A DNA stretch of 32,000 nucleotides from Acaryochloris marina MBIC11017 (GCF_000018105.1 NC_009925.1:3540001-3572000), one strand, 5' to 3'. Shown: positions 205-16,369, counted from the first letter of the stretch. Translations and numbers: made by a program. Notes: generated by a model not told the origin, from the sequence alone.

Positions 205-608
205 TGTTTCGGCCCGGCTTCATTCAGCCCAGACTCAACCTCTCATTTCTCCCTCATCAAACTTTTAAGTCAGGCTAATAGCGGCTTTATCAGTCATTTC
301 TACAATCAGAGTTGAACTACAGCCAAGCCCAATGTTATGCGCATGTACTACATTTGTATTACAGGCTCAGGATGCCACTTACCTTGGTCATCAATTCATC
401 CCCGCACTCAGGGACTGAGGGTTTGCCTTCTTTGGCTAATTTTGAACTTTCAATGCGGTCAGACCTAGCGGGAACTGCTAAACAAGGCCCTTGAGTCGGT
501 TTACCTGAAGCATTGTTAACTGATCTTTAGTAACGATTACTCTATGTATCAGTCCACCATGGCCGCTTGGCCAACCTTACCCATCCCAAGGCCATCTCCT
601 CACAATTC

Positions 609-657
609 ATGGCATCTAATTCCCAGCATATTTAGAGATCTGGGAATTAGATGCCAT
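609..657. repeat. Perfect 18-bp inverted repeat (hairpin or operator candidate) upstream of phoD
   Basis: ATGGCATCTAATTCCCAG (609-626) and its exact reverse complement CTGGGAATTAGATGCCAT (640-657) are separated by a 13-nt loop. No T-tract follows. The repeat lies 47 nt upstream of the phoD ATG. Confidence 0.8.
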
Positions 658-703
658 AGCCCTTGGCCCCAGTTCTGTAGCGCTTAACCCAACCAAATAT
701 TTA

Positions 704-2269
704 ATGCTCAATCGACGACAGTTTTTGTTGACGGTGGGGGCAGTTATGGGTCTTGTCGTTCTCAGGGATCAGTCGCCCCCGATCTTGGCTCAGCCCCAAT
801 TTTCTGCCTATCCCTTTAGCCTAGGCGTTGCCTCCGGCGATCCTCGACCCGATAGCGTTGTCCTCTGGACACGGTTAGCCCCTAACCCTTTATCGGGGCA
901 ACCTATGCCTGCGGTTGCTATTCCTGTTCAGTGGCAGATTGCAACGGATGCCCAGATGACCGAGGTGATTCAACAGGGAACGACCCAGGCTACGCCACAA
1001 TGGGGACATTCCGTTCATGTGGTGGCAGACAATTTGTCTCCAAGCCAGTGGTATTGGTATCAATTCCAAGTGGGGTCAGAAACAAGCCCGATTGGTCGAA
1101 CTCGAACCCTGCCGGCCTTGGACACAGACCCTGAGCAGTTAAAGTTTGCGTTTGTGTCTTGCCAGCATTACGAAAAGGGATACTTCACGGCCTATCAACA
1201 TCTCGTTCAAGAAGATTTAGATCTGGTCTTTCACTTGGGGGACTATATCTATGAAGGCGGTCCTCACAAAGGGCGGCCCAGACAACATATAGGGCCTAAC
1301 CCCATCGATCTAGAGACGTATCGTCTACGTTATGCCCTGTACAAAAACGACCCCCAATTGCAGGCCGCCCATGCAGCATTTCCCTTTATCTGCATTTGGG
1401 ATGACCATGAAGTCGATGAAGACTATGCCCAAGACCAGTCCCAAAACTATGATGACCCTAATGTCTTTCGCAAACGTCGATGGGCAGCCTATCAAGCCTA
1501 TTATGAGCATCTGCCGTTACGGCCCACTGCTCAGCCTCAAAACGGCCAAGTCCAACTGTTTCGTCGCTTCCAGTTTGGCCAATTAGCTGAGTTTCATTGC
1601 TTAGATAACCGCCAGTATCGGGACGATCAACCTTGCGCCACTGAGGGAATAGGAGGAGGCGCGATAGTCTCAGCCTGCCAAGACCGTTTAGCGGCTGACC
1701 ATTCCATGCTGGGTAAACCACAAGAGGCTTGGCTGATCCAGGGGCTACAAAACTCTTCCGCTCATTGGCAGGTGATTGCCCAACAACAGCTGATGGCAGA
1801 ACTGAAGTTTGGTCTGGAAACAGTATCTGGGTATTGGACAGATGGCTGGGATGGCTATGCCGCCTCACGCCAACGCATCTTGGATGTTGTTGAGCAACGC
1901 CCCCTGAAAAATGTGGTTGTGATTGGGGGAGACATTCATGCTTTTGGGGTTGCAGATCTAAAGACAAATTTTCAGGATCCTCAGTCCCCTATCATTGGGA
2001 CTGAATTTGTGGGTACCTCCATTAGTTCTACGGGGCTACCGCAGGCGCTCTATTCCCTCAGTCAAAAAATAAATCCTCACATCAAATTTTTGGATACCCG
2101 CCATCGAGGCTATGTCCTTTGTCAGATCACGCGGGAGGTTTGGACTGCCCATTTACGCATCGTTAATTCCGTCGAACAGTCTGAGTCCACTATTCGAACC
2201 CTGGCTTCTTTTCAAGTCAAAAATGGCCAACCTGGAGCCATTCCCATAGAAGCCATGGCAAACCCTTGA
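704..2269 (+). CDS. phoD: PhoD-family alkaline phosphatase/phosphodiesterase, Tat-exported
   Basis: 521-aa ORF. The N-terminus has a twin-arginine signal (MLNRRQFLLTVGAV). It carries the PhoD hallmark FSLGVASGDPRPDSVVLWTRL and the metallophosphatase motifs LGDYIYE and IWDDHEVDED. Confidence 0.9.
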   Translation: MLNRRQFLLTVGAVMGLVVLRDQSPPILAQPQFSAYPFSLGVASGDPRPDSVVLWTRLAPNPLSGQPMPAVAIPVQWQIATDAQMTEVIQQGTTQATPQWGHSVHVVADNLSPSQWYWYQFQVGSETSPIGRTRTLPALDTDPEQLKFAFVSCQHYEKGYFTAYQHLVQEDLDLVFHLGDYIYEGGPHKGRPRQHIGPNPIDLETYRLRYALYKNDPQLQAAHAAFPFICIWDDHEVDEDYAQDQSQNYDDPNVFRKRRWAAYQAYYEHLPLRPTAQPQNGQVQLFRRFQFGQLAEFHCLDNRQYRDDQPCATEGIGGGAIVSACQDRLAADHSMLGKPQEAWLIQGLQNSSAHWQVIAQQQLMAELKFGLETVSGYWTDGWDGYAASRQRILDVVEQRPLKNVVVIGGDIHAFGVADLKTNFQDPQSPIIGTEFVGTSISSTGLPQALYSLSQKINPHIKFLDTRHRGYVLCQITREVWTAHLRIVNSVEQSESTIRTLASFQVKNGQPGAIPIEAMANP

Positions 2270-2281
2270 TATGCGGCTCAC

Positions 2282-2587
2282 TTAAAGCTCAATCTGGCCG
2301 GTTAGCATATCCTTCATCATGGCAAAATCGCCTCGTAGGCTCCACAACGGATAATTGAAGGTGGCTGGCTTGTTCTTCTCAAAAAAGAAATGACCGATCC
2401 AGGCACACCCATAGCCCAGCACGAGAGGCAGGGGCAGATAAATCCAGTTTCTAAGGCTGATCACCGTCAGCAAGGATAGCAGTCCCAGGGTGATCCCTAG
2501 GAGGTGTAACCGCCGACAGATCAGATTTTGGTGTTGAGATAGATAAAAAGGGTAAAACCCTTGAAAGTCACAAAATTCTGGTTGCAT
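2282..2587 (-). CDS. DUF962 / Mpo1-like small membrane protein
   Basis: 101-aa ORF with two hydrophobic segments and the conserved stretch GYGCAWIGHFFFEKNKPATFNYPLWSLRGDFAMM, typical of the DUF962 (YGL010w/Mpo1-like) family. Confidence 0.7.
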   Translation of the reverse strand: MQPEFCDFQGFYPFYLSQHQNLICRRLHLLGITLGLLSLLTVISLRNWIYLPLPLVLGYGCAWIGHFFFEKNKPATFNYPLWSLRGDFAMMKDMLTGQIEL

Positions 2588-2691
2588 GATTGATGTCTAT
2601 CCTCAAGTGAATTGAGAAAAGGAAGTCCCATGGGTCCGGCAGTAAAAGACTGCCTGAAGAGACCTCTCCATAACTGGTTGCAAAAAGTGCC

Positions 2692-2722
2692 TTGACTTAG
2701 AGCATACTCTAACTTTTAAGGT
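2692..2722 (+). promoter_or_regulatory. MerR-type promoter: -35 TTGACT, 19-bp spacer containing a dyad operator, -10 TAAGGT
   Basis: TTGACT (2692-2697), a 19-nt spacer (2698-2716) and TAAGGT (2717-2722). The dyad TTAGAG-CATA-CTCTAA (2697-2712) starts at the last T of the -35 element. This is the geometry and the hexamers of the classical Tn501 merT promoter. The ATG at 2729 lies 7 nt after the -10, which would make the transcript leaderless. Confidence 0.6.
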
Positions 2723-2728: not shown

Positions 2729-3050
2729 ATGGAGCAATCACTCACCATTCAGCAAGTAGCTTCAGCAACGGGACTGAGCACTCACGATGGAAAGTGAGGC
2801 AACTGTGCCCCTCCAACTCTCTGCATAGGGCCAGTAGAACGTATTGACCATCGGATGCTCTCCCGTCCCAGACCTTCGCTCAAGCGTCGATAGCCGACTG
2901 GGTTTGCATAGGTTAAGTTTGGAACACAGATATCTAGTCAGAAGTCTGTATGAAGAGTGGTTCCTCAACAAGCTCAAAAAGAGGCAGATAGGTGATTCGA
3001 TCGCTGATAGCTTGGGCTGGTTAAGTGTTGTTGGAATTTTGAGGATTAGG
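2729..3050 (+). pseudogene. Decayed MerR-family transcriptional regulator (premature stop plus frameshifts)
   Basis: The ATG at 2729 opens MEQSLTIQQVASATGLSTH, a MerR-type HTH N-terminus, and reaches a TGA at 2795-2797 after 22 codons. Other frames downstream hold MerR-like pieces: GPVERIDHRMLS (about 2828-2863) and SPVPDLRSSVDSRLGLHRLSLEH (about 2856-2924), followed by a coiled-coil-like tail. No single frame is intact. Confidence 0.5.
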
Positions 3051-3051
3051 G

Positions 3052-3960
3052 ATGAGCTTACTAGGTAAAAGAGGGTTGTCTGGCATTGTCGCAGGCAGCA
3101 TTTTGAGTGGGCTATGCATTCAACCTGTATGGGCAGGGACGAATTTAACCCGTGCCAAAGTTTATGAATTTGACTCCCAAGTTCAACTTCAGAAAGTAAA
3201 ACAAAAGCCACGCCTTGCCAAAGTCGGTGACGTGATGGTGCCGATGGATATTCTCAAAACGGGGTCGAGTGCTTGGGCCAAGCTGCTGTTTAATGAAGGC
3301 ACCTTGTTTCGGGTTCATTCTAATGCCAAGTTCTTTTTTACCCCCAATACTCGGAGCTTTCAGCTCAAGCATGGATTAGTTTTATCGATGATTCAGCCGG
3401 GGCAGGGAATTACGACGGTGATTACGCCGACGGCCAAAATTGTCGCCTTTGGTACAGCCCTAACGGTTCGCCATGACTCCACCCAAAACTCAACCATCGT
3501 GAGTGCGTTAACTGAAAAAACCGGTCGGCCTATCTTTGTCTCCAATGATGATGGTGCAGGACAGATCAGATTGAAAGCAGGTGAGCAAGTAGAAATTAAA
3601 GATAACGTCGTGGGGCCTGTCCAAACCTTTAGTCTGCCAGCGTTCTATCAAGCCTGTCCGATCAGTTCGGTGTTAGCACCTGACCAAGAACAACTCGTTG
3701 CCCTAGAACCCACGGATGTGCAAACGCCTTTGTTAGTGATTCGAGAGGAAACAGCAGAGGCTGTGGCAAGACAATCTGCATCGCCTGCCGTTTCTACGGC
3801 TGAGTTGGCAGAACTGTGCGCTCCTGTTCCAGAGTTGCCAGAAGAAGAAAAACAGCGACCGAATGGTGGTCCTAGGATTGGTATTGGCGGTTGTATTCCT
3901 TTCCTCACCTGTGGAACCGGTAGACCTAACCCGGTCCGAGTCCCTGGACAAAGACCCTAA
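3052..3960 (+). CDS. Secreted FecR-domain-like protein with a Pro-rich C-terminus
   Basis: 302-aa ORF. It has a signal peptide (..SILSGLCIQPVWAG) and a FecR-like core (VGDVMVPMDILKTGSSAWAKLLFNEGTLFRVHSNAKFFF..GLVLSMI). The family call is tentative. Confidence 0.55.
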   Translation: MSLLGKRGLSGIVAGSILSGLCIQPVWAGTNLTRAKVYEFDSQVQLQKVKQKPRLAKVGDVMVPMDILKTGSSAWAKLLFNEGTLFRVHSNAKFFFTPNTRSFQLKHGLVLSMIQPGQGITTVITPTAKIVAFGTALTVRHDSTQNSTIVSALTEKTGRPIFVSNDDGAGQIRLKAGEQVEIKDNVVGPVQTFSLPAFYQACPISSVLAPDQEQLVALEPTDVQTPLLVIREETAEAVARQSASPAVSTAELAELCAPVPELPEEEKQRPNGGPRIGIGGCIPFLTCGTGRPNPVRVPGQRP

Positions 3961-5210
3961 TTGGGAATCGCGGCTGGTTTGGCTTTGGGTTTGGACTTAA
4001 GGCTATCGATTAATCCGCTATATAGAGCCGTAAACTTTGCTTCCTCCAAGGGTTGGTTGTTGTTCCAGGTGGCAGACACACAATAGGTTTTGCCGTCCTT
4101 GCTTTGCAGTTGAGTGGTGAAATTGAGAACTCCCGGTTCGGATCCACCTTTAAAGGAAATGGTCTGCCAATCTTGAGGACGAGCTAACCCTGGATTAATT
4201 TGGGTCACGGGTAAGTCAGCAACGTTTGCCATCAATTGACAGAGTTCTGTTGTGGTATAAAACCATTCAATTTCTGGAGAAAGGACGCCTGATTCAAAAT
4301 CGGTCACAGAGGAGAGTGGTGCTGACTCACTAAGCAGGGCTTGGCGTTGTTTGGCCTCGGTAGCCAGGAAGCGATCGCGCAATGATACATTTTTCGGATT
4401 CTTGAGTACAAACGCTTCTCGCGTCATCAGAAACGGTGTATTGCGAGGGGAAAGCTTTTCTAAAGCGGGTTTACCCACGAGCTGGATCAGATGGTCCGTG
4501 GCCGTGTTATCACTTTGGGAAATCATCAACGCCGCCAAACTATAGACCGTTAAAGAGGACTTGGCAGGCCAGGTGTGCAAGAACCCAGACGGTAAGCTTT
4601 TTAACTGCGGCTGTAGCTTCACTACCGCATCCCAAGACTGTTGCTTGGCAGCAATCTGGGTCTTCAGTACATTTAGGACGGCCAGCTTAAAGGCAGAACC
4701 AACAGCCAAAGGCTGATCGGGGTTGTGGGACAGCTTGGGGGTTCCATTCTCAAGCACCAATACGCTGACTTTACCGGGTAAGGCTTTAAACGCAGAGGTC
4801 AGATCCTGAGAAGGTTTAGGATGCGCGCGCGGGGCTTGAAACAGTAACCCAGAAATCAACCCTTGCTGGTTAAGCACCAAACGGGTGGGGACAATGCCTT
4901 TTTCAAACACCACCACAAAGCCAGTGCCGTCTTCTCGTACCCCTTGATAAGGGCCGAGTTGCTGCTTCATATTGCTAATAATGGTTTGCACCTGGGGTGC
5001 AGCTACCTGGGACAAAAATGAGGGGGTAAACCAATTGGCTAGAACTACTGAACTGGTAAATAAGCGGGTGAGCATTCGCCCTTGAGGAGTTTGGGGAGCA
5101 GCCTGGGAAGCAGGGACTTGGGGATTGGCATATCCCCTGGGATTGGTTAAAGTTCCTGATGTCGTGATGAACAGACTCAGCAATACAACCAATCGAGTGT
5201 GACGTTTCAT
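3957..5210 (-). CDS. Secreted serine hydrolase with a class A beta-lactamase-like fold
   Basis: 417-aa ORF with a signal peptide. It carries SxxK (GSAFKL), SDN (SQSDNTATDHL) and a KTG-like KGGSEPG motif in the canonical order. An extra N-terminal domain of about 130 aa is present. Confidence 0.7.
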   Translation of the reverse strand: MKRHTRLVVLLSLFITTSGTLTNPRGYANPQVPASQAAPQTPQGRMLTRLFTSSVVLANWFTPSFLSQVAAPQVQTIISNMKQQLGPYQGVREDGTGFVVVFEKGIVPTRLVLNQQGLISGLLFQAPRAHPKPSQDLTSAFKALPGKVSVLVLENGTPKLSHNPDQPLAVGSAFKLAVLNVLKTQIAAKQQSWDAVVKLQPQLKSLPSGFLHTWPAKSSLTVYSLAALMISQSDNTATDHLIQLVGKPALEKLSPRNTPFLMTREAFVLKNPKNVSLRDRFLATEAKQRQALLSESAPLSSVTDFESGVLSPEIEWFYTTTELCQLMANVADLPVTQINPGLARPQDWQTISFKGGSEPGVLNFTTQLQSKDGKTYCVSATWNNNQPLEEAKFTALYSGLIDSLKSKPKAKPAAIPN

Positions 5211-5312
5211 GGATTAAACCTCTGGGTGCCGAACAAATTTCTAATGACAGCAACGGATTCCAACTCCTGAAGTATAATCTTGCCCAACGAGTTGCTGAGA
5301 GTATCAAGGGTT

Positions 5313-6110
5313 ATGGGTGTTGGAATTATTCTGGTGTGTGCTCTCTTCCTGTTGGTGATCTGGCTGGCCTTTCAGCCCAAGCAGGGAGAAACGGCAGCGA
5401 ACTCGCCAGACAAAGACGACCCACCCTATATCCCCCCTCCACCCTCGAAAAAGACTGCTAATTTCTCTGATGATGACTCCAATTTGTCCCCAGATGTACC
5501 GAATGTGGAGCATCTATCTGATTCGCAGGTAGAAAAGTCTTACTTTGATGATGAATCCTCACCTCTTATAGCTGATCCTTCTCTTTTAAATCTCGACGGG
5601 ATAGGCGACGACGGAGACGATGCCTCTAGGCAAGGTCCCATTGTCATTAGTGATGATCTCCGACAGCAGGTTCAACAACTCGTGGCGGCAGGACGTGAGA
5701 TTACCGCAGTTAAAAAGTTGCGGCAACAGGGCATGGAGCTGAATGAAGCTCGACAATACCTGGATGCTTTGCCCACCCCTCCTCCTACCGATGTATTGGG
5801 ACCCTCATCGAGACAGCAAAATTATGAGCAGGTTGAAGCTGAAGTTCGGCGACTCCTGACCCAGGACCAAAAAATTCAGGCCATTAAATATGTTCGTGAG
5901 CAATGGGGCTATGGTCTCAAGGCGGCAAAAGCCTATGTTGAATCCTTGGAGGGAACAAGCAGTCCATCCCAAAATTCAGACGATGTTGATGCAGAGGTTC
6001 GGCTGCTGCTCTCGCAAAACCGCAAAATCGAAGCCATTAAATTGGTGCGTCTGCGATGGGGGTATGACCTCAAGGACGCCAAGAACTATGTGGAGTCTTT
6101 AGGAAGATAA
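5313..6110 (+). CDS. Membrane-anchored protein with three ribosomal L7/L12 C-terminal-domain-like repeats
   Basis: The ORF track starts at a TTG at 5280. The ATG at 5313 (MGVGIILVCALFLLVIWLAF, a TM helix) is the more likely start. An acidic, Pro-rich linker follows. Three roughly 40-aa repeats sit at 5652-5771, 5826-5948 and 5979-6101. Example: KIEAIKLVRLRWGYDLKDAKNYVESL against E. coli L7/L12 [26 protein letters not shown]. Confidence 0.7.
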   Translation: MGVGIILVCALFLLVIWLAFQPKQGETAANSPDKDDPPYIPPPPSKKTANFSDDDSNLSPDVPNVEHLSDSQVEKSYFDDESSPLIADPSLLNLDGIGDDGDDASRQGPIVISDDLRQQVQQLVAAGREITAVKKLRQQGMELNEARQYLDALPTPPPTDVLGPSSRQQNYEQVEAEVRRLLTQDQKIQAIKYVREQWGYGLKAAKAYVESLEGTSSPSQNSDDVDAEVRLLLSQNRKIEAIKLVRLRWGYDLKDAKNYVESLGR

Positions 6111-6131
6111 ATCAGGTTGACTAGCAATCGA

Positions 6132-6806
6132 CTAATCCAGAATTAACTCTCTTTGCTCAATCCGTTGACTGAGCAGTTGCTTATTCCCTTGGGTCACCAC
6201 TAAACGGGCATCCCGCAAGGCTTGAGGATTCGTCTCAATCTTATAGGTCACGTCTCCATTTACGGCTTTATAGGACAAGGCATAGTATTCACCGGTGGTC
6301 TGAGCAGGTAAGACAATCTTCGACCCGGTCTTTTTCTCAATGCCTACGTAGCGATAGTTTCGGTCCGTTTGGCTGGATTGATTCAAACAGATGAAAATCT
6401 GATAGTCGGGGGTATTCATGCTCTCAAATAGATGATCGTTGCCACAGAACTGGCGTGGATTTTGGGAGTTTGCGGCAATGGTCGGTGCTGGAGCAACTAC
6501 ACTGTCTTCCGGGTCGAGATTAGGTGGGGGCTGACTCGAAGGATTGGCGACGGGGGGCAATTGTGCGGGTAAGGGCTGGCTCGGGTTTGTGGCCAAAGGT
6601 TGTTGATCAGGGCTTGTCGTAGGCGCGTTGGCAGGCGGATTCTCGTCTAGTTCTGAAAGTCCGGGAGGTGCAGGGGTGGGGCTGCCTTGGCTCACGGATT
6701 CACTCGGTGTTTCCGGGGGTGGATCGCTCTCTTCTGCAGGTTGAGTACAGGCCGTGATCAGTCCCAAGCTGATGATATAAACCCAGGACAGCCAAAACTT
6801 TTTCAT
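6132..6806 (-). CDS. Lipoprotein with a Pro/Ser/Thr-rich linker; function unknown
   Basis: 224-aa ORF. It has a lipobox signal (MKKFWLSWVYIISLGLITAC), a long proline-rich low-complexity region and a globular C-terminal domain of about 100 aa. Confidence 0.6.
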   Translation of the reverse strand: MKKFWLSWVYIISLGLITACTQPAEESDPPPETPSESVSQGSPTPAPPGLSELDENPPANAPTTSPDQQPLATNPSQPLPAQLPPVANPSSQPPPNLDPEDSVVAPAPTIAANSQNPRQFCGNDHLFESMNTPDYQIFICLNQSSQTDRNYRYVGIEKKTGSKIVLPAQTTGEYYALSYKAVNGDVTYKIETNPQALRDARLVVTQGNKQLLSQRIEQRELILD

Positions 6807-7264
6807 ATTTCATCCAGTGCGCAACCTATCTCTAACCTAGCCTAATCGTAGGGGGATGTAACACAGGCCTTGATGGGTTGAATGCGAATTTGGACTCGAT
6901 TTTGGATTGGCCTTTGCTGTCTAAGTTTTAAACAAAAGATTTAGTGGGCGGGGCGTTTGCTAGTGCTATTAATGAGAGACTTTGTGACTAGCAAAGCGGG
7001 AAACAATGCGTGGGAAGTGACTTTAGCCTGGCGTGAGGTGTTGCAGCTTAATGCTTGAACGGTTAGATGATTCTCTGAGGTCTTGCACACGGTATTTTTA
7101 AGCGTGGATTCACGTATCTAGCACCGATTTACGCTCTCGTTTATGCTAAAAAAGCATTTAAGGTGATATTTGCAGAAATCGAGTTTCAAGGGCTGAGCTG
7201 GCTACCATTTATTTCTCAGCGGCAGAATCAATCATGGGCATAGTAGCTATCATCTGGGAGAAGC

Positions 7265-7804
7265 ATGGGAATGGAAGGCTTTTACTTTATTAGCTATTCC
7301 AAGGTTGATAGCACAGACCTAGCGCGCAAACTGGCTAACGATCTGCAGAGAATACCTCCCTCTATCCCAGTGTGGCTAGAAGAGCGTGAGTGCCAGGGTG
7401 GCATTGACTGGGATGAGCAACTGGTGGAAGCGCTGCGAACCTGTAGTGGCGTTCTGTTTCTGATGACAGCGGACAGCGTTCACCCCAGATCAGAATGCAA
7501 GCGGGAATGGACAAGGGCTTTGCGGTATAAGAAACCCATTATCCCGCTGCTCGTGGAACCCAATGTGGAGATGCCACTCGACAGTATATTGATTTTTCGG
7601 GCGACTATGACCAGGCATTGGCAGCACTGCGTAGCCATCTACAATGGCGCTTGTCGCCTAAAGGGATATTATCTAGTCTTCAAGAACGTCTCTACGATGC
7701 TGAACGGGACTTGCCCAGGGCACCAGATGAAAAGGAACAGGCCCGAATTCAAGATGAGATGGACTCGCTTAGGAAAGAGATTGCTGCGCAGCAGGAGACG
7801 ATAG
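7265..7804 (+). CDS. TIR-domain portion of a frame-broken TIR-NB-ARC-TPR gene
   Basis: An SD-like GGGAGAAG precedes the ATG. The ORF opens with FYFISYSKVDSTDLARKL, contains GVLFLMTADSVHPRSECKREW (candidate catalytic Glu81 at 7505-7507) and then KKPIIPLLVEPNVEMPL. TIR-like sequence ends near 7580. The remainder of this frame up to the stop at 7802-7804 looks like out-of-frame junk. Confidence 0.75.
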   Translation: MGMEGFYFISYSKVDSTDLARKLANDLQRIPPSIPVWLEERECQGGIDWDEQLVEALRTCSGVLFLMTADSVHPRSECKREWTRALRYKKPIIPLLVEPNVEMPLDSILIFRATMTRHWQHCVAIYNGACRLKGYYLVFKNVSTMLNGTCPGHQMKRNRPEFKMRWTRLGKRLLRSRRR

Positions 7805-10206
7805 CCAATCCACAAAAGGCCGAGCAGAAAACCCAGGATCGGGTTGAAAGCAGTATTGAGCGGGAACGTCAGCCGATCCAGCCAGTTCAGGCACAGACCT
7901 CGACCAAGTTTATTAACCCACCGCCAACCACTGCACCCACATGGTTCCAAAATCGCTTTGTGGAAACTCAATTCCTGGGCAACTTTCTGCAAGATCCAGG
8001 GTTGCGGATGATGACGGTGGTGGGTCGGGGCGGGGTCGGCAAAACGGCGATGGTTTGTCGTCTCCTGAAAGCCTTGGAAAATGGATATCTGCCCGATGAC
8101 TTGGGACCGTTGCCTGTGGATGGCATTGTTTACCTCAGTCCAAAGGGCTTAAGGCAAGTTAATTTTCCTCATCTTTATGCAGACCTTTGTCGGCTATTGC
8201 CCCCTGCGATTGGGGAACATCTGAGTGAGATTTATCGCACTCCCCAAGCCTCTGCTTATGCCAAAATGCAAGCCCTGCTCAATGCATTTCCACAAGGTCG
8301 CGTCGTTGTTCTGCTGGACAATTTCGAGGAAGTGTTGGAGTCAGAGACTGGCAACTTGCAGGATCAGGAGTTTCAGGAGGCTTTGCAAGCTTTATTGGAA
8401 TTACCCCAGCATGGGGTCAAGGTGATTATTACGACTCGTGTTTCACCGCAACCCTTGCTGCTCACTGAGTCAGCACGCCAAGAGGTTCTGAGAGTAGATC
8501 AAGGGCTAGAATCCCCCCACGCTGAAAATCTGCTACAGCAGATGGATGCGAATGGCAGTCTTGGACTAAGGGATGCTTCCTCTGAATTACTCGATTTAGC
8601 CCGCCAAAGGACGCTGGGTTACCCACGAGCGTTGGAGGCTTTAGTCGCTATTCTGAAGGTTGATCGCAGCAGAACTCTAGCGGAGCTGCTTGATGATGCC
8701 AAGCAAACGCTACCTGAAAATGTGGTTGAAGTGCTGGTGGGTGAAGCCTTTAGCAGCCTTGATCCCTTGTCTCAACAGGTGATGCAGGCCCTGGCGATTT
8801 TAGGCAATTCAGTCACGGCAGGTGCGGTGGACTTTTTACTGCAACCCTATTTGCCGACAGTTGATAGTGCTCCTGTACTGGGCAGGTTAGTGAATATGTT
8901 TTTCGCCCGCCGAGAAGCAGGGCGATTTTATCTCCACCCAGTAGATCGCAGCTATGCTCTTAGTCGCATCCTGGAGGGGCAGCCAGAGGATCGTGATGCT
9001 GCTTCCTTGCCCTTTACCCGCTTTGCCCTTCTCAATCGGGCTGCTGACTATTACCAGACGATTCGAACGCCCAGAGAAAATTGGAAGATCCTTGAAGACC
9101 TGTCACCACATCTGGCAGAAATTGAGGTCCGAATTGCGGGGGAGAATTACGACACTGCAGCTTCAGTGCTGCTAGATATCGACTATGATTACCTGCTGCT
9201 TTGGGGGCATGCTCGGCTATCCGTTGATCTCTATGTACGACTAATAGGCTACCTCACAGATCGCGATCTAAAACGTTCATGTCTTATAAGCCTAGGCAAC
9301 TGCTATTACAGACTGGGCGACTATCCAAAAGCCATCGACTACTATCAACAGTATCTTGCGATCGCACGCGAGATTGGATACCGAAAAGGCGAGGGAATCT
9401 CCCTTGGCAACCTGGGCAACTGCTATGACAGCCTGGGCGACTATCCAAAAGCCATCGACTACCACCAACAGTCTCTTGCGATCAAGCGAGAGATAGGATA
9501 CCGACAAGGCGAGGGAAACTCCCTAGGCAACCTGGGACTTTGCTATGACAGCCTGGGAGACTATCCAAAAGCGATTGACTACCACCAACAGTCTCTTGCG
9601 ATTTCTCAAAAGATTGGAGATCAATATCTTGAAAGCTATGAATTCTGTTCCCTAGGTGACACATATATTGCAATTCGAGAACTTACTCAAGCATGTAAGT
9701 TTTATCGGGAGGCTAGCGATATTGCGTGCAAAACTAGTAACCGAGAGAACCAACATCTAGCATATTTCGGTTATGCCTTGGCCAACTTACTCAAAAATGA
9801 ACTAGAGATTGCCCAAAATGCAATCGATCTCACTCAAACCAATGATTACCCTCAGAATAATGCCGCAGCATTAACACTAGCGGGCATCATCCACCTACGC
9901 ACAGCTAAAGCCAATAAGGCCAAAGAGGCCTTTGTGCAAGGTGTAGAAGAAGCCGATAAGTTGCTCAAGATGTGCGATCAAAACCTGTTGATGTTGGAAA
10001 CTAAAGCCCTCGCTCACTGTGGTCTAGCACTTTGTGAAAAGACAAATCATCTAGCTGCCGCTCATCAAGCCTTCCAGGTCGCTCGTCAGATTACAACCGC
10101 CAAAGGCGTCATCGCACATCTACTCCAGTTATTCGATGCTCTCGCCATTACAGATACCGACAACATCCTCGTAACCACCCGACCAATCGCAGCAGGTCAG
10201 AACTGA
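7618..10206 (+). CDS. STAND NTPase (NB-ARC-like P-loop) plus TPR array; likely the continuation of the TIR ORF
   Basis: This frame is open from 7531 and reads RQYIDFSGDYDQALAALRSHL from 7579, a TIR C-terminal motif. A charged coiled-coil linker follows. Walker A is GRGGVGKT (8023-8046) and Walker B is VVVLLDNFEEV. A helical/winged-helix region and at least 8 TPR motifs (GDYPKAIDYHQQSLAI...) complete the ORF. The listed start at 7618 is a TTG and may not be a real initiation site. Confidence 0.8.
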   Translation: MAALRSHLQWRLSPKGILSSLQERLYDAERDLPRAPDEKEQARIQDEMDSLRKEIAAQQETIANPQKAEQKTQDRVESSIERERQPIQPVQAQTSTKFINPPPTTAPTWFQNRFVETQFLGNFLQDPGLRMMTVVGRGGVGKTAMVCRLLKALENGYLPDDLGPLPVDGIVYLSPKGLRQVNFPHLYADLCRLLPPAIGEHLSEIYRTPQASAYAKMQALLNAFPQGRVVVLLDNFEEVLESETGNLQDQEFQEALQALLELPQHGVKVIITTRVSPQPLLLTESARQEVLRVDQGLESPHAENLLQQMDANGSLGLRDASSELLDLARQRTLGYPRALEALVAILKVDRSRTLAELLDDAKQTLPENVVEVLVGEAFSSLDPLSQQVMQALAILGNSVTAGAVDFLLQPYLPTVDSAPVLGRLVNMFFARREAGRFYLHPVDRSYALSRILEGQPEDRDAASLPFTRFALLNRAADYYQTIRTPRENWKILEDLSPHLAEIEVRIAGENYDTAASVLLDIDYDYLLLWGHARLSVDLYVRLIGYLTDRDLKRSCLISLGNCYYRLGDYPKAIDYYQQYLAIAREIGYRKGEGISLGNLGNCYDSLGDYPKAIDYHQQSLAIKREIGYRQGEGNSLGNLGLCYDSLGDYPKAIDYHQQSLAISQKIGDQYLESYEFCSLGDTYIAIRELTQACKFYREASDIACKTSNRENQHLAYFGYALANLLKNELEIAQNAIDLTQTNDYPQNNAAALTLAGIIHLRTAKANKAKEAFVQGVEEADKLLKMCDQNLLMLETKALAHCGLALCEKTNHLAAAHQAFQVARQITTAKGVIAHLLQLFDALAITDTDNILVTTRPIAAGQN
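9295..9654 (+). repeat. Three tandem 120-bp units, each encoding a 40-aa TPR pair, inside the STAND gene
   Basis: The units start at 9295, 9415 and 9535, an exact 120-nt period. Units 1 and 2 are similar along their whole length (roughly 85-90% by eye). Unit 3 matches for its first 70 nt or so and then diverges. Confidence 0.85.
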
Positions 10207-10227
10207 GCAATCTTTTATCCACTAACA

Positions 10228-10842
10228 TCAATTAGCAGCTGCAAACACTGCATCTACAGTCAAATTCAACTGCGGGAAGATCCCAGAAACCAACATTTCT
10301 CCCGCTACAAAACGTCGAATTTGATACTCTTCACCGTCCAGCTGGCAGATTGTAATCGTCGGCTGCTTCGGTTTGCCAATGTGGCGCACAGCCCCTAACG
10401 CCCGAAAATCAACCAGCCAATATTCGGCAACGCCCATGGCCTCATACTCTACAAACTTGTGACCATAATCATCCCGCCAGTTTGTACTCACCACCTCAAC
10501 AATCAGTGGAGCCGTTTGACCCAACTGAATCACTGAAGCAGTGGGCCAAAGTGATTCTTGTGGCAATAACTCACGATTGAGAACCACAACATCTGGTATG
10601 TAGCCCGATCCTTCCGACTGAGGTTTAACTAGGCAAGTGCGAGGAATGGAATAGGGTAGCTGTTGTCTCCGAATTTCAAAATTGAACTCCGCGCTTAAAA
10701 AGCCACTGACATCCTCATGGGGACCGGTTGGTAGCCTCTCAACCCCAACTCCCTCAATTAATTCATACCGGCGGCCATCATCGGGATACCACTCAAGAAA
10801 AGCTCCAAAACTCATCGGGTGTTCTACCCGCGCTTGAACCAT
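10228..10842 (-). CDS. Uma2-family (DUF820) PD-(D/E)xK putative endonuclease
   Basis: 204-aa ORF with GGAGGA 7 nt upstream of the ATG. Family hallmarks are FLEWYPDDGRRYELIEGV, IPDVVVL, PLIVEVVS and YEAMGVAEYWLVD. Confidence 0.8.
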   Translation of the reverse strand: MVQARVEHPMSFGAFLEWYPDDGRRYELIEGVGVERLPTGPHEDVSGFLSAEFNFEIRRQQLPYSIPRTCLVKPQSEGSGYIPDVVVLNRELLPQESLWPTASVIQLGQTAPLIVEVVSTNWRDDYGHKFVEYEAMGVAEYWLVDFRALGAVRHIGKPKQPTITICQLDGEEYQIRRFVAGEMLVSGIFPQLNLTVDAVFAAAN

Positions 10843-11186
10843 GAGGAATCCTCCACAATGTCAATGCCCCATCCGTATTTACGAGCCCAAACGGATATCT
10901 GAAAGCCAAGCTTCACCTAAACCTACCATAGGCAAAATATACCGAAGCCAAGGTCAGCCCTGTCTACCCATCCTCACACTTGTGATTGCTCCTGGAGGAT
11001 TGGCATACCTCTCATTTTTTGCAGATCGGGCATACCACTAGCTCAGTTTCCACGAGGCTCAACACTTCAATAAGACATCGTCTTTTTGAATCAGTGCCTG
11101 GATGTTTACGACCAACAGTTGCGATATGTTTCTATCTCCTGCTTGGTCGACCAAATCCAGTTAAAAAAAGACCACGGTACCCGATA

Positions 11187-12251
11187 ATGTTTGAGGTTGT
11201 TATGGATAGTCTGACAGGCGAGGTAAAGCACGTGACCAATTTAGCCAATCCACTGCAAACATCAAACCAGCCGATTCCCGTTGGTGTGCTAGGGTTTGGC
11301 GGACTTGGACAAGCCGCAGCTAGAGTTCTAGCTCCCAAACAGCAAATGAAGCTGGTCGCCGCTGCAGACCAAAAAGGCTTTGCCCTCAACCCCGAAGGCT
11401 TGGATTTGCAAAGTGCGATCGCAGCCTACAAAACTCAAGGCTCCCTCGGTTACCTCGACCCAGGCGGTACCCTCAGCACCCAAAGCATTGCCGATCTGAT
11501 TCAGCAGAGCCAGAACGTTGCCGGTTTTTTCCTGGCGTTGCCTAACCTGCCCAATACCTTTATGGCCTCCGTCGCTAAACAGTTTATCGATCTAGGCTGG
11601 AAAGGCGTTTTAATCGATGCCATCAAACGGACCAGCGCCGTTGAGCAGCTTGTAGACCTCCGGGCTGAACTGGCAGCAGCAGGTATTACCTACGTCACAG
11701 GCTGTGGCGCTACCCCTGGCTTATTGACCGCGGCGGCTGCCTTAGCGGCCCAGAGCTACGCCGAAATTCATCAAGTCAAAATCACCTTTGGGGTCGGTAT
11801 TGCTAACTGGGAAGCCTACCGCGCCACCATCCGTGAAGACATTGCCCATTTACCCGGTTACACCGTCGAAACGGCTAAAGCCATGACCGATGCTGAGGTG
11901 GAAGCCTTATTAGACAAAACTAACGGCATCCTTAGCTTGGAAGATATGGAACATGCCGATGACATCATTCTAGAGATGGCCGGGATTTGTGGTCGCGATC
12001 ACGTCACCGTTGGCGGGGTCGTCGATACTCGCAATCCTAAGAAACCCCTGAGCACCAACGTGCAGCTTACGGGGCGAACCTTTGAAGGTAAAATCTCCAC
12101 CCATACCTTCACATTGGGTGATGAAACTAGCATGGCCGCCAATGTTTGTGGGCCTGCTTTTGGTTACCTCAAAGCAGGCATTGCCCTCCATCAACAAGGG
12201 CTTTGTGGACTCCTGACTTCTGCTCAGGTCATGCCCCATTTTGTGTCTTAA
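11187..12251 (+). CDS. NAD(P)-binding oxidoreductase, saccharopine-dehydrogenase-like
   Basis: It has a Rossmann motif ([17 protein letters not shown]) and [14 protein letters not shown], typical of the saccharopine dehydrogenase-like family. I moved the start from the track's 10986 to the ATG at 11187 because the upstream 67 codons look non-coding. The specific substrate is unknown. Confidence 0.55.
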
Positions 12252-12851
12252 CGGGCTTCTACAAAATTCATCCTTGTCTGAGAACTTTGCCCTAAACCGG
12301 ATAGGTTGTGGCTTTACTTTCTTAAGGAAGCAGATGGTGAGGGATGCCCTAGAGGTGATCGCGAAAAGGTCGCCACATTCTAGGTCAGCCATCGCTTTTT
12401 GATGGGTTCTATTCACGATCAAAAATGTTCTCAAAACGTTTTGTAGGCTGCTTTTAGAACTCTCTGAGCAGCCATGATTCGCTGTGGTTATGGCCCATCA
12501 TGAACACCGGTGAGCAATGAATGCAATGCTCAGGATCAAACCCTTTTGGCTAATAGGTTGTAGCGACTCAATCCCTCGTATTCTGAATTACTTGCGTGCT
12601 GTAGAAAATCACTTCTAGAAATATTGTCAAAATCTATAGATGTGTTTACAAATACCGTTTTGATATTCAGAATATGTTAGCGAGGATTGGTTTATTGATA
12701 ACCATTCGGAATTGTTGATGCTCTTTCTTATCTCTCACCCGAGATTCACTAACCTTTGCTCATAAAACAAATACGTGAACCTGAAAAGAGTTGCCGAGCC
12801 GAGGGGGGTATGAAGTTTATGTTCCTCATGTTTTGAAGATGGAGTTCATCT

Positions 12852-13652
12852 ATGTCGATTACAAAAAAAGTTTTTGCTGAGTTTTTTGGCACGTTCTGGC
12901 TGACCTTTGGGGGCTGTGGTAGTGCTGTATTTGCTGCTGTATACGCCACAAGCTTAGAAGTCGGTGAAGCCAAAGAAGCCTTTCCTTTTTCTTTGGGCAT
13001 TGGCTTTACAGGGGTGTCCCTGGCCTTTGGTTTAACGGTTCTGACCATGGCCTATGCGGTAGGCCATATTTCTGGCGGACATTTCAACCCAGCGGTCTCC
13101 TTTGGACTATGGGCAGGCAAGCGATTTTCTGGATCTGAACTCTTGCCTTACATCGTTGCTCAAGTGGTGGGTGCGATTGCTGCAGCGGGTCTTTTGTATC
13201 TCATCGCCAGTGGTGCGGGTCCCATTGATGTTTCCGGTGCGAACCCACTTGCGACCAATGGATTTGGTGCTCACTCACCCGGTGGCTACAATCTGGTTGC
13301 TTGTTTGATCGCAGAAGTCTTGCTCACCATGATGTTCCTCTTGATCATCTTGGGTGCCACAGACAGCCGTGCCCCTCAAGGGTTTGCTCCTGTTGCCATT
13401 GGTCTAGGCTTAACCCTGATTCACTTGATCAGCATTCCCATTACCAATACTTCCGTCAACCCTGCTCGTAGTACTGGCCCTGCCTTGATTGTTGGTTTGG
13501 CTGGCAACATGGAGTTATTTGCTCAAGTTTGGCTATTTTGGGTGGCACCGATTGCAGGTGCGATCGCAGCCGGTTTCATCTATAACGCTCTATTCGAAGC
13601 AGATACCACTGCCCCCACTGCAGGTGATCGGAGTTTCGCTGAGCGATCATAA
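12852..13652 (+). CDS. aqpZ: Aquaporin Z
   Basis: 266-aa ORF with six hydrophobic segments and both NPA boxes (GGHFNPAVS and TSVNPARS). The [19 protein letters not shown]-terminus is typical of AqpZ. Confidence 0.9.
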
Positions 13653-13701
13653 GAGAGTCTCTCTCAGTTATTAACGCTCTCTAACATTTGCGAATCGATC
13701 A

Positions 13702-13932
13702 ATGTCCTTTTTGCGAGGCTATCTCGCGGCTTTAATAGATCCCACCTATCGGACCAATGCTTTAAAAGTGGCGGCCATAGTGGGGTCTATTTTATTGGCG
13801 ATTAATCATGGCGCGGCCCTAACCCAAAACAAAATGACCCGCGCACGCTGGATCTCAGCAGTCCTCACCTATTGCGTTCCCTATATGGTGAGTGTTCATG
13901 GCCAATATGTTAGTCGCACTAAACAACCGTAG
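13702..13932 (+). CDS. Small membrane protein resembling the NrtS nitrate/nitrite transporter family
   Basis: 76-aa ORF containing LKVAAIVGSILLAINHGAAL..MTRARWISAVLTYCVPYMVSVHGQ. From memory this matches the roughly 70-aa NrtS family pattern. It lies 49 nt downstream of aqpZ on the same strand. Confidence 0.5.
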   Translation: MSFLRGYLAALIDPTYRTNALKVAAIVGSILLAINHGAALTQNKMTRARWISAVLTYCVPYMVSVHGQYVSRTKQP

Positions 13933-13937
13933 TGGCG

Positions 13938-14795
13938 TTACTCCAAGTCGAGGGTGAGCTGGTAAATTTGACGACGAGACATGGCATGTTTCTCTGCCAA
14001 TTGCCGACTCGCCCGTGATTTAGACCATCCCTGAGCCAATAACGCTTGCAATTCTGTGCGTAGCTCTAGGTCTGTAGGCAAGGTCTTACTCACCACTGCT
14101 CCTGCCAAGACCACTGTAAATTCCCCTTTGGGTTCATGGCTTTGATAGTGGGTGATGGCAGCTTGCACCGATCCGCGCCAAAACTCCTCGAACCGTTTAG
14201 TTAATTCCCTTGCCAAGACAATCTGTCGCTCAGCACTGACCTGCTCTGCTAAATCTTTTAAGGTCTGGCGTAACCGATGGGGTGCCTCATACAAAACAAC
14301 GGTGCGGGATTCTGTCGCGATGTCCTGCAATCGCTGTTGACGCGCTTTTCCCTTTGCAGGCAGAAACCCCTCAAAACAGAAGCGATCGCAGGGTAACCCC
14401 GAGGCTACCAATGCTGCGATCGCAGCATTGGCACCAGGAATCGGTATCACTTCTATCCCAACCTCAACACAAGCTTGCACCAGTTCCACTCCCGGATCAG
14501 AAATTCCTGGCATGCCTGCATCACTAACGAGAGCTAAATCCTGCCCGGATTCTAATCGCTGAATTAGTTCCTGTGTGCGGGTTTGAGTGTTGTGCTGGTG
14601 ATAGCTAATTTGCGGGGTTTTGATCTGAAAGTGATGGAGCAGTTTACCCGTATGGCGCGTATCCTCGGCTGCGATCGCAGCCACCGTTTGCAAAATCCGT
14701 ACCGCCCGAAAGCTCATATCTTCTAAATTCCCAATCGGCGTTGCCACAATATACAAGCTGCCGTTTTGGGATGTATTGGTTTCAGAAGATGTCAT
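13938..14795 (-). CDS. rsmI: 16S rRNA (cytidine1402-2'-O)-methyltransferase
   Basis: It has LYIVATPIGNLEDMSFRAVRILQ, AEDTRHTGKLL, SDAGMPGISDPG and the C-terminal LTKRFEE region. I placed the start at the ATG at 14795. The track's 14801 is a TTG. Confidence 0.9.
   Translation of the reverse strand: MTSSETNTSQNGSLYIVATPIGNLEDMSFRAVRILQTVAAIAAEDTRHTGKLLHHFQIKTPQISYHQHNTQTRTQELIQRLESGQDLALVSDAGMPGISDPGVELVQACVEVGIEVIPIPGANAAIAALVASGLPCDRFCFEGFLPAKGKARQQRLQDIATESRTVVLYEAPHRLRQTLKDLAEQVSAERQIVLARELTKRFEEFWRGSVQAAITHYQSHEPKGEFTVVLAGAVVSKTLPTDLELRTELQALLAQGWSKSRASRQLAEKHAMSRRQIYQLTLDLE
14416..14423. repeat. HIP1 (highly iterated palindrome GCGATCGC), one representative copy
   Basis: Exact GCGATCGC. 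Further copies are at 4371, 9358, 11415, 13560, 14382 and 14671, and others at about 17895, 24125, 24335, 24548, 27345 and 31240. This density is characteristic of many cyanobacterial genomes. Confidence 0.85.
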
Positions 14796-14959
14796 AAACA
14801 ACTGAACAATCTAGAGCATATGCAGAGTATCGCCGATAAAGTGCTAAACAGACTATTTCGGGCAGACAGCCGCATATTTATAGATTCGCCAATACGATGG
14901 TTCACGGGAAATGAGCGAAACGGATGATTAGTTTAACACCATTCCAATTCAGTGATGTG

Positions 14960-15421
14960 CTATCCCACGATTTTGAATGGAGTGGCATTGTCCACCTCTT
15001 CAGAACCGCCCAAATAGACGTCGAACCATAGTTCTAAATTAAGTTCAGCAAGCCGCCGAGACTGTTGCGGTGAAATAGTCGGCCCACCATGTCCAGATAA
15101 GGATTGCCAAAAACAACTAATATCTGCTTTGCAACCAGCCTGACGCAGGGCAAAAAATCTATCCGTAATGGGTTCAACTTGGTCGAGGAGCCAATCAATG
15201 TGTCGGCGAGAATCGAGCGAATCAATCAAATGCTCAGTCTTTAAAAACCAACCGTTAATTCTTGCCTGCCGACGGGAGGACAGAGGATCACCCAAACGTT
15301 GGGTGAATGTGGGTTGGATGCCAAGCAGCTTGGTTACAGCATGAGGATCTTTAGTGCCGGGATATAACCGTAGCGTTGCGTAGGTCTTTTCACATATTGC
15401 GTAATCGTCGTTGTATTCCAT
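14960..15421 (-). CDS. DUF4279-domain protein
   Basis: YATLRLYPGTKDPHAVTKLLGIQPTFTQRLGD matches the DUF4279 N-terminal signature. The ATG at 15421 (MEYNDDY) is preferred over the GTG at 15433. Confidence 0.6.
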   Translation of the reverse strand: MEYNDDYAICEKTYATLRLYPGTKDPHAVTKLLGIQPTFTQRLGDPLSSRRQARINGWFLKTEHLIDSLDSRRHIDWLLDQVEPITDRFFALRQAGCKADISCFWQSLSGHGGPTISPQQSRRLAELNLELWFDVYLGGSEEVDNATPFKIVG

Positions 15422-15626
15422 ATCGCAAAGCACGATCGCTGTGGTTATACGTATAAAATCCCTGGGTAAAGATACATGAGGTCGATAATTTATAGCCTCG
15501 TCCGGTTACTTCTGTAGCTCTAACATCTGCTTCAAGGATATTACGATGTCAAATGTTGGCTACATCCTCCCTACCCGGTATAACGCTCAAACTCTCGTGT
15601 CTAAGCTGTCCTTATGTGTCTGAACC

Positions 15627-16292
15627 ATGAAACGAGCAAAATTCCTCACTCCCCGTATGAGCATCTTGCTCCTAACTGTGGTGTGTGTAGTGGCAACAGG
15701 CATCGCTCTACTGGCGTTGGGTAAGCTGGATACTACTCAAATTGAGGACATGGTTAGCCGTGTAGGGATTTGGGGACCCATTTATTACATCTTGGCTTAT
15801 GTCATCGCCACCCTCTTGGTTCTTCCTTCAACAGCCCTAAATCTCATGGGAGGGGGATTGTTCGGCCCTTGGTTAGGAACCCTTTGGACAAGCCTTGCCG
15901 CCATTATTGCCGCAGTTGTGGCTTTTTACTTGAGCCGCACTATTGGCCGCGAGCCGATTGCGAAACGATTAGCGGGACGCTGGCAAAAAATGGATGCTGA
16001 GGTCAAGCGTGGTGGTCTCTTCTACATGTTTGCGATTCGTTTAGTGCCGATTATGCCCTATGGCCTGGTGAACTTTGCAGCGGGTCTCACCTCTATCCGC
16101 TTTCGTGATTTTCTAATTGGGACAATCTTGGGCACCATTCCCAGTGTCTTGCCCTTTGTCCTCATCGGTAGTTCCAGCGTGCAAGCCCTCAACTCTGGTA
16201 ATGTTGCCCCTTTAATCGGTGCCTTGGCATTAACCGGAATCCTGGTAGCAGGATCAACCTATTGGCGACAAAAACGGTACAAGCGGAGTTGA
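15627..16292 (+). CDS. TVP38/TMEM64 (DedA-related) family membrane protein
   Basis: 221-aa polytopic ORF with the family motif RLVPIMPYGLVNFAAGLTSIRFRDFLIGT. Confidence 0.8.
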   Translation: MKRAKFLTPRMSILLLTVVCVVATGIALLALGKLDTTQIEDMVSRVGIWGPIYYILAYVIATLLVLPSTALNLMGGGLFGPWLGTLWTSLAAIIAAVVAFYLSRTIGREPIAKRLAGRWQKMDAEVKRGGLFYMFAIRLVPIMPYGLVNFAAGLTSIRFRDFLIGTILGTIPSVLPFVLIGSSSVQALNSGNVAPLIGALALTGILVAGSTYWRQKRYKRS

Positions 16293-16369
16293 TACCCGCG
16301 AAAAAGTGTTATGAACGCTACCGTTCAGTGCAAAACTGGTAGGTGGAGCTGACGCAATAATCTAAAAGT

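Follow-up and report, generated by a model that had tools for sequence, protein, structure and literature searches.

Among the described systems closest to the gene studied here, the bacterial Avs receptors hold an effector, a STAND nucleoside triphosphatase (NTPase) and an alpha-helical repeat sensor in one polypeptide, are encoded by single genes and have swappable effectors. Binding of one phage protein by the Avs sensor leads to oligomerisation, and that STAND receptors with TPR sensors recognise phage proteins has been established by experiment (PMC13581612). In plants, TIR-NBARC-TPR proteins (TNPs) carry TIR, nucleotide-binding and TPR domains in that order; their catalytic Glu is needed for NADase activity and cell death, and cell death also requires their P-loop (PMC9806590). 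Fusions of TIR to AP-ATPase/STAND modules with TPR have already been described in cyanobacteria, actinobacteria and deltaproteobacteria in work on NTP-dependent conflict systems (Kaur, Burroughs, Iyer, Aravind, eLife 2020, 2021; PMC7159879, PMC8195603), and bNACHT proteins, which are abundant in cyanobacteria, may carry TIR and TPR domains (10.1101/2022.07.19.500537). Here, we characterize a gene of this general type at positions 7265-10206 (plus strand) of a stretch of 32,000 nucleotides (nt) from Acaryochloris marina MBIC11017 (GCF_000018105.1, NC_009925.1:3540001-3572000). The whole stretch is called the window, and all positions are counted from its first letter.

An earlier interpretation of the same DNA, the sequence-only reading, had assigned 7265-10206 to one NLR-like STAND protein and named it the best candidate for an uncharacterised immune or signalling system. 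The receptor architecture is confirmed, with TIR, helical linker, STAND NTPase and TPR in the order effector, switch and sensor. It is no novelty in view of the TIR-AP-ATPase/STAND-TPR fusions reported in the two conflict-system studies, and the standing as best candidate for a working immune system is lost, because this copy is broken by what appears to be a 13-nt deletion within the TIR domain. The locus is probably a recently inactivated, strain-specific copy of an NLR-like receptor, whose intact kin would sense through their TPR array, oligomerise through their NTPase and consume nicotinamide adenine dinucleotide (NAD+) through their TIR domain.

The split gene and the lesion in its TIR domain

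An open reading frame (ORF) scan and translation showed that 7265-10206 consists of two overlapping ORFs in different frames and not of the single ORF that had been assumed. The features that bear on the split are as follows:

7265-7804, plus strand: ORF A, 179 amino acids (aa), the N-terminal TIR part followed by an out-of-frame tail
7265-7579, plus strand: N-terminal part of the TIR domain, betaA to betaD, residues 1-105, frame 0, with FYFISYS and the candidate catalytic Glu81 at 7505-7507
7574-7584, plus strand: lesion site CCACTCGACAG, where frame 0 gives way to frame +2, located from the junction in relatives and from translation
7579-7653, plus strand: C-terminal part of the TIR domain, betaE ('YIDF') and alphaE, residues 106-130, frame +2, with QYIDF at 7582-7596
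7580-7804, plus strand: out-of-frame tail of ORF A, 75 nonsense codons and then a stop
7618-10206, plus strand: ORF B, 862 aa, the STAND-TPR remainder without TIR (AM1_3506 / WP_012163892.1, 'tetratricopeptide repeat protein')

ORF B is identical to AM1_3506 of A. marina MBIC11017 (ABW28496.1 / WP_012163892.1, also BDM77497.1), a locus tag whose annotation is limited to 'tetratricopeptide repeat protein' and of which no mention was found in our literature search. ORF A consists of 105 native TIR residues and the nonsense tail. It lacks betaE (YIDF) and alphaE, which lie in the other frame, so that the betaA-betaE/alphaA-alphaE fold of the TIR domain is complete in neither native polypeptide. 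For domain analysis, frame 0 of ORF A and the frame +2 reading were joined at 7574-7584 into a repaired protein of 980 aa; it still lacks about four conserved residues, and a full 'protein' arises only by this repair.

In three-frame translation, the TIR-like reading of frame 0 ends at ...NVEMPL and sense resumes in frame +2 as RQYIDFSGDYDQALAAL... The window thus has EMPL directly followed by RQYIDF where intact relatives have EMP(L/Y/F)RLEPRQ(Y/H)(I/L)DF, and about four conserved residues, (L)RLEP, are lost at the lesion, one of them a Leu that at least 90% of relatives keep. Judging from these aligned junctions, the observed CCACTCGACAG is best explained by a single putative 13-nt deletion, which would reproduce it if the nucleotides in parentheses were removed from CCA CT(N CGN CTC GAA CCN) CGA CAG. 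In the AlphaFold2 (AF2) model of the repaired protein, the lesion maps to the betaD-betaE loop of the TIR domain.

An independent assembly built from public reads (Logan SRR29694088, locus L079) has the same DNA at the junction and beyond 4350 differs from the window at only 10 positions in ca. 15.8 kb (4350-20206, ca. 0.06%). The split products recur on 14 further Logan contigs, where a 177/179-aa product is called, and in another NCBI record, BDM77497.1; no intact allele was found among our homology-search matches. Since the same lesion recurs in independent assemblies, it is not a sequencing error; it is a genuine mutation that uncouples the effector from the switch and the sensor. An assembly or sequencing error, or a programmed ribosomal frameshift, would be compatible with a full-length receptor being made, and the overlapping ORFs together do encode a complete family member bar about four residues. 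We consider this highly improbable, given that the junction is the same in a short-read assembly made from other reads and in the second NCBI record, that the lesion is no homopolymer slip and that about 13 nt of conserved coding sequence are gone. Programmed frameshifting is rejected in view of this loss of coding sequence and of the junction itself, as CCA CTC GAC contains no slippery heptamer.

Over its 2.6 kb, ORF B shows no further defect and keeps every family-invariant residue, which indicates that the inactivating event is recent. The lesion leaves a truncated TIR fragment and an effector-less STAND-TPR ORF. As sensing would then no longer be coupled to TIR output, the Acaryochloris copy has most likely lost its function and would be a recent pseudogene.

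The good condition of ORF B is also open to the explanation that the split gene works as two parts, a TIR fragment and a STAND-TPR protein started from TTG 7618 or ATG 7762, or that the TIR-less STAND-TPR protein serves as a regulator or dominant-negative guard. ORF B is intact over 862 codons with the family-invariant residues retained, the split allele is common to several near-identical assemblies, and a promoter-like match (TTGGCA-16-TACAAT, 10/12 positions; 7618-7645, plus strand) lies directly 3' of the lesion and 5' of the first in-frame ATG of ORF B (7762). Promoter-like sites in the region do not, however, exceed those of shuffled sequence (4 found, 5.1 expected). Further, a stable and active TIR is unlikely from an ORF A that lacks betaE and alphaE and carries 75 out-of-frame codons, and none of the intact relatives examined is split. 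The strains that share the allele differ by only ca. 0.06% over 4350-20206, which points to recent common ancestry and not to retention by selection. A functional two-part gene thus appears quite unlikely to us, and loss of function remains our preferred explanation for the split.

Domain architecture and its nearest known counterparts

Downstream of the TIR domain, the following parts were recognised:

7654-7878, plus strand: charged helical linker, residues 131-205, with AF2 helices at 132-152, 156-181 and 183-202 and predicted local distance difference test (pLDDT) values of 81-90
7906-7965, plus strand: pre-P-loop motif KFINPPP...FQNRFVE, recognised by conservation, its second half like the STAND 'hhGRExE' motif
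7993-8508, plus strand: nucleotide-binding domain with Walker A GRGGVGKT (8023-8046), Walker B RVVVLLDNFEE (8299-8331) and sensor-1 TTR (8431-8439)
8509-9090, plus strand: helical domain (GYPRAL 8617-8634), winged-helix domain (LHPVD 8932-8946) and helical arm to the repeats
9091-10146, plus strand: TPR sensor array of about nine hairpins (TPR_12; AF2 pLDDT above 90)
9291-9650, plus strand: three tandem 120-nt units encoding near-identical 40-aa TPR repeats

The AF2 model of the repaired protein (pLDDT 86.4, predicted template-modelling score 0.71) shows a TIR fold, four helices over residues 115-202, nucleotide-binding, helical and winged-helix domains and about nine TPR hairpins, and a separate model of the NTPase module reached a pLDDT of 85.3. 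Together with profile matches and conserved motifs, this confident model bears out the order of TIR, linker of about 90 aa, P-loop NTPase and TPR given by the sequence-only reading, whose 'coiled-coil linker' corresponds to the AF2 helices across residues 115-202. Its domain and motif coordinates, including the Glu at 7505-7507, Walker A at 8023-8046, Walker B and QYIDF, agree with our translation. From the profile searches it had proposed, TIR_2 and TPR_12 came out above their cut-offs whereas NB-ARC fell below.

In case of the TIR domain, Pfam TIR_2 matched residues 8-122 of the repaired protein with 72.9 bits (cut-off 28, E=4e-20), and native ORF A is also recorded with TIR_2. Conservation was assessed on an alignment of 64 full-length relatives with 49-69% identity to the query (alignment A1). 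The TIR residues S10, Y11, D70, S71, V72, E81 and W82 are invariant in these relatives, and R106, Q107, D110 and F111 are invariant across the family alignment. In alignment with TLR2, E81 coincides with the Glu of the 'WCKYE' motif, which is the canonical catalytic position; in the SPARTA alignment, E77 falls one residue away. A TIR-only profile matched TLR2, the SPARTA TIR-APAZ protein, AbTIR and SARM1. None of the NCBIfam TIR defence proteins (Thoeris ThsB and others) scored above its cut-off, with ThcB4 at 16.8 bits vs. 220 and FxsC_Nterm at 15.5 vs. 130.

The motif ahead of the P-loop has the family form KFINPPP...FQ(N/D)R.VE, with F216, N218, P220, P225, R231 and E234 invariant, and we take its FQNRFVE half to have the form of the STAND 'hhGRExE' motif. 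The KFINPPP half (7906-7926) is modelled poorly in spite of its invariant F216, N218 and P220, with low pLDDT over residues 206-229 and values below 50 for 206-214 and 222-229; it lies between the helical linker and the P-loop domain and may act as a hinge or make an autoinhibitory contact.

Pfam places a P-loop NTPase at residues ca. 244-411 of the repaired protein. Across the 64 relatives, G254, R255, G257, G259 and K260 of Walker A and D352 and E355 of Walker B (LLDNFEE) are invariant or near-invariant. The sensor-1 TTR (residues 390-392) is conserved with T390 invariant, G452 and P454 of GYPRAL and D561 of LHPVD show no variation, and at least 90% of the relatives keep H558. The protein combines marks of a STAND NTPase, namely Walker A and B, conserved acids, a sensor-1 Arg and an upstream hhGRExE-like motif.

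Placement of the NTPase within the STAND class was approached via profiles, motifs and fold. The scores for NACHT (28.2 bits vs. cut-off 26.7, model positions 1-148 of 167) and AAA_22 (29.3 vs. 27) are above their cut-offs, while nSTAND1 (24 vs. 27.1) and NB-ARC (18.1-20.9 vs. 23.5) are below, the NB-ARC alignment covering only model positions 12-40, i.e. the P-loop. When the NTPase segments of 16 relatives were analysed, NACHT, AAA_16 and AAA_22 matched in all 16, NB-ARC weakly in 14 and nSTAND1 in 10. The D-N-F-E-E of Walker B resembles the NACHT 'DGhDE' pattern. RNBS-B, GLPL-like and MHD-like motifs are marks of the NB-ARC/AP-ATPase clade, and TTR, GYPRAL and LHPVD are present and conserved at the RNBS-B, GLPL-like (GxP) and MHD-like places, respectively. 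An NTPase-only profile found nothing significant among PDB sequences (best E=0.046, P-loop only), and matches of the whole-protein profile to PDB sequences were dominated by TPR proteins.

The models were also compared with the PDB by Foldseek. The NTPase module retrieved PH0952 (E=3e-10), Apaf-1, Roq1, MalT, a wheat resistosome, WRR4A, NRC2 and RPP1, with the first NACHT protein, NLRP2, at rank 45; the AP-ATPase structures (Apaf-1, Roq1, NRC2, RPP1) rank high, but with template-modelling scores of only 0.23-0.41. For the whole protein, PH0952 (6mfv) came first (E=4e-13, 715 aligned columns), followed by LGN/Pins TPR domains and then by RPP1 (ca. 635 columns), Avs3 and Roq1. The STAND fold matches to PH0952, Apaf-1, Roq1, MalT, RPP1 and Avs3 had E values of 1e-10 to 1e-6. 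Sequence profiles thus slightly favour NACHT, and the neighbours of the modelled fold favour AP-ATPase/NB-ARC and MalT-type modules. The NTPase may belong to either the NACHT or the NB-ARC clade. The label 'NB-ARC-like' of the sequence-only reading is sound as a description of a STAND P-loop with a likeness in fold; as a statement of clade membership it is not demonstrated, the NB-ARC profile remaining below its cut-off and NACHT exceeding its own.

The TPR array scored 139 bits with TPR_12 in three stretches of the repaired protein. Within it, the second and third 120-nt units are 88% and 65% identical to the first. The sensor region is moderately variable in the family, with 48-56% mean pairwise identity, like the rest of the protein. 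Since the family ranges in length from ca. 940 to 1,300 aa, its members may differ in their number of repeats. Repeats that are alike within one protein, as here, also occur in fungal NLRs. A Foldseek search against viral structures was uninformative, as it retrieved nothing but giant-virus proteins of generic TPR or Sel1 type.

Compared with Avs, the Acaryochloris protein has the same single-polypeptide plan and finds Avs3 among its fold matches. It differs in that its sensor is a canonical TPR_12 array of ca. 350 aa with near-identical 40-aa units, whereas Avs sensors are large and bilobed, in its effector, a TIR domain with a helical linker of 90 aa, in being frameshifted, and in giving no PADLOC Avs match. 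Plant TIR-NLRs (RPP1, ROQ1, WRR4A) share TIR, nucleotide-binding module, repeat sensor and the Glu at the catalytic position; RPP1 aligns over ca. 635 columns spanning TIR and NTPase, and Roq1 and WRR4A are among the top NTPase matches. Identity is only 13-17%, however, NB-ARC scores below its cut-off, the sensor is TPR instead of leucine-rich repeat, and the helical linker is additional. TNPs have the same domain order as the Acaryochloris protein; their TIR domains group apart from bacterial TIRs (PMC9806590), and common descent of the whole architecture is thus not established. The match to PH0952 (6mfv) extends from the nucleotide-binding domain through the helical and winged-helix domains and the arm into the TPR sensor. 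PH0952 and MalT lack the TIR effector and act as regulators, and identity is ca. 15%. With the NTP-dependent conflict systems, the gene shares the TIR-AP-ATPase/STAND-TPR fusion, and its relatives share caspase, CHAT, EAD1, bacterial death-like, calcineurin-like phosphoesterase and SLATT modules. Many of the published systems comprise several genes (vWA-MoxR or GTPase-centred), whereas the family here looks like a stand-alone gene, and we did not find its clade named or tested in the two studies (PMC7159879, PMC8195603). In case of bNACHT, the likeness lies in NACHT being the only clade-specific NTPase model above its Pfam cut-off; no PADLOC bNACHT match was obtained, and in the fold search AP-ATPase and MalT-type structures come far ahead of those of NACHT proteins.

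The wider family and its proposed mechanism

A first homology search yielded 1,477 matches at E<=1e-10 among 8,000 candidates scored. Most homologues have ca. 1,000-1,100 aa with TIR_2, NTPase and TPR, bear the source label 'TPR repeat protein' and come from cyanobacteria, Deltaproteobacteria and Chloroflexota metagenome-assembled genomes. The closest intact ones are P0034 (69% identity, Leptolyngbyaceae), P0010 (61-64%), P0005 and P0006, and no orthologue above 69% identity was found in this search. An exhaustive profile search with the NTPase module, run on representatives at 50% identity, gave 4,563 matches at E<=1e-3, of which 1,099 reached E<=1e-30, so that we put the family at a lower bound of at least 1,099 clusters (50% identity, E<=1e-30). 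In most representatives the NTPase module starts near residue 208, which implies a TIR domain and linker in front of it. When contigs were scanned with the repaired protein, 78 loci were matched in the TPR region only, with patterns dominated by KAIDYYQQ, and no Acaryochloris locus was among them.

Members with a longer N-terminus carry Peptidase_C14 (caspase), CHAT, Metallophos, EAD1, bDLD1 or DUF7363 upstream of the TIR domain (representatives with a second module before TIR: P0250, P0339, P0318, P0367, P0273, P0284). Judging from their domain composition, these are putative double-effector or adaptor-bearing variants, and such conflict-type accessory modules are typical of known bacterial conflict systems. 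More distantly, Streptomyces plasmids encode a trypsin-like peptidase fused to a ca. 29% identical module, and a ca. 30% identical relative on a Deinococcus plasmid is fused to an AfsR-like BTAD transcriptional-regulator domain. The neighbourhoods of five relatives have no shared partner gene. On one metagenome contig (L089, 8001-16825), two paralogous TIR-STAND-TPR genes (1,020 and 1,002 aa) flank a TPR-S/MAP3K_TRAF_bd protein and are followed by a 180-aa SLATT_3/DUF4231 gene. Here, a TIR-derived signal may act on a membrane effector, and the SLATT neighbour hints at signalling in some members. Another family locus lies near an MNT/HepT toxin-antitoxin pair.

For the intact relatives, we propose a mechanism by analogy with Avs (PMC13581612), with TIR enzymes that need self-association and a Glu, and with plant TNPs (PMC9806590). 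The C-terminal TPR array would bind a trigger, for which a protein of an invader or phage is the most plausible candidate. Trigger binding would then free an autoinhibited NTPase module to form a nucleotide-bound oligomer, which in turn would gather the TIR domains into composite active sites around the invariant Glu. The clustered TIRs may either hydrolyse NAD+, resulting in abortive infection, or make an ADP-ribose-derived signal.

Such a role in conflict has to be weighed against one in regulation or signal transduction, in which the family would be STAND proteins of the MalT, AfsR or PH0952 kind with an endogenous ligand and the TIR domain an interaction or NAD-sensing module. This agrees with PH0952 and MalT being among the best structural neighbours, with the BTAD fusion of the Deinococcus plasmid relative, with a sensor that is only moderately variable and with the examined loci not being defence islands. 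It fits poorly with the invariant Glu at the TIR catalytic position, with fusions to caspase, CHAT, EAD1, death-like and phosphoesterase modules, which are hallmarks of conflict systems (PMC7159879, PMC8195603), with the presence/absence polymorphism between close relatives described below, and with SLATT and toxin-antitoxin genes adjoining some loci. We regard a regulatory family as rather unlikely.

Similarly doubtful is a more far-reaching proposal, that the intact family forms an unrecognised, cross-phylum class of single-gene TIR receptors with a trigger outside those of Avs and bNACHT, and that, speculatively, the TIR-less split allele is kept for a function. In that class the TPR array would undergo concerted evolution, and the even conservation of the sensor would fit a conserved invader protein or a 'guarded' host molecule.

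A number of observations weigh against our preferred interpretation of the Acaryochloris locus as a recently inactivated immune-type receptor. That ORF B has stayed open over 2.6 kb with all invariants leaves room for residual STAND-TPR function. The window and L079 alleles differ at 3 nt within the gene (1 synonymous, 2 non-synonymous), too few for a selection test, and the 15 lineage-unique changes that the gene carries at conserved sites, vs. 1-13 in the four nearest relatives, are a somewhat high number, but one that is confounded by phylogeny and not decisive. The PADLOC check that had been suggested gave no specific defence-family match: the models (PADLOC-DB 2.0, to which the newer Avs7-21 families of PMC13581612 do not belong) returned no Avs or bNACHT match, only generic TPR and weak Aga_TIR (E=1.5e-5) and mad8 (E=0.002) matches. 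NCBIfam gave nothing above its cut-offs, no homologue was found in the records of a phage collection, and the window neighbourhood holds ordinary genes and no known defence genes. The statement that no cyanobacterial member has a demonstrated trigger or output stands, in that we found no experimentally tested family member in the literature, in searches that were not exhaustively aimed at this question.

The variable segment and its neighbours

Comparison of the window by blastn with a relative whose DNA is ca. 90% identical (L081, Logan SRR29950796), together with the gene order of L081 and synteny via the flanking BioU, delimited the strain-specific part of the locus:

6836-11100, no strand: strain-specific segment of 4,265 bp, replaced by 73 bp in L081
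10228-10842, minus strand: Uma2-family gene, putative restriction-endonuclease-like (DUF820), Pfam Uma2 102.5 bits

The segment lies between the lipoprotein gene and bioU and contains exactly the TIR-STAND-TPR gene and the Uma2 gene. L081 has the order Beta-lactamase2, L12-repeat protein, lipoprotein-like gene, bioU and MIP; in the window, the biotin-synthesis enzyme BioU is encoded on the right flank, at 11202-12251. The patchy distribution anticipated by the sequence-only reading is thus borne out by the absence of the segment from L081 and by the 69% ceiling on orthologue identity. Its 'accessory patch' of 5.3-10.8 kb proved correct in that a variable segment exists, but not in extent, as the true span is 6836-11100 and the L12-repeat and lipoprotein genes are kept in L081 outside it. 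In more distant relatives, L083 and, from A. thomasi, L085, other genes lie to the left, so the event may have been either an insertion or a deletion. The segment borders show neither terminal repeats nor a target-site duplication, only chance-level 7-mers and imperfect inverted repeats. Uma2 is absent together with the TIR-STAND gene in L081. At five other family loci examined, it is not adjacent to the receptor, which makes a functional link between the two unlikely.

Upstream of the segment, 5280-6110 (plus strand) encodes a protein of 276 aa that has a transmembrane helix at its N-terminus, a spacer rich in Pro and Asp, and a motif like the C-terminal domain of ribosomal L7/L12 in three copies (Pfam Ribosomal_L12, 53.8 bits over 2 stretches). 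The protein is conserved beside the lipoprotein-like gene in L081. The identity between L079 and the window is mosaic, with 10 differences over 4350-20206, 102 over 2853-4349 and only 90% identity over window positions 4-2719. This suggests a recombination boundary inside or beside the Beta-lactamase2 gene (3957-5210). An Rfam scan of the whole window gave no match.

For the biology of Acaryochloris, the locus matters little, being a recently broken accessory gene that is missing in a close relative. A domain string read across a frameshift should not count as a working protein, and the native frameshifted allele could be used as a natural loss-of-function control. Of more interest is the family, which is very large and highly conserved, is missed by current defence-profile libraries and has a domain order like that of the plant TNPs.

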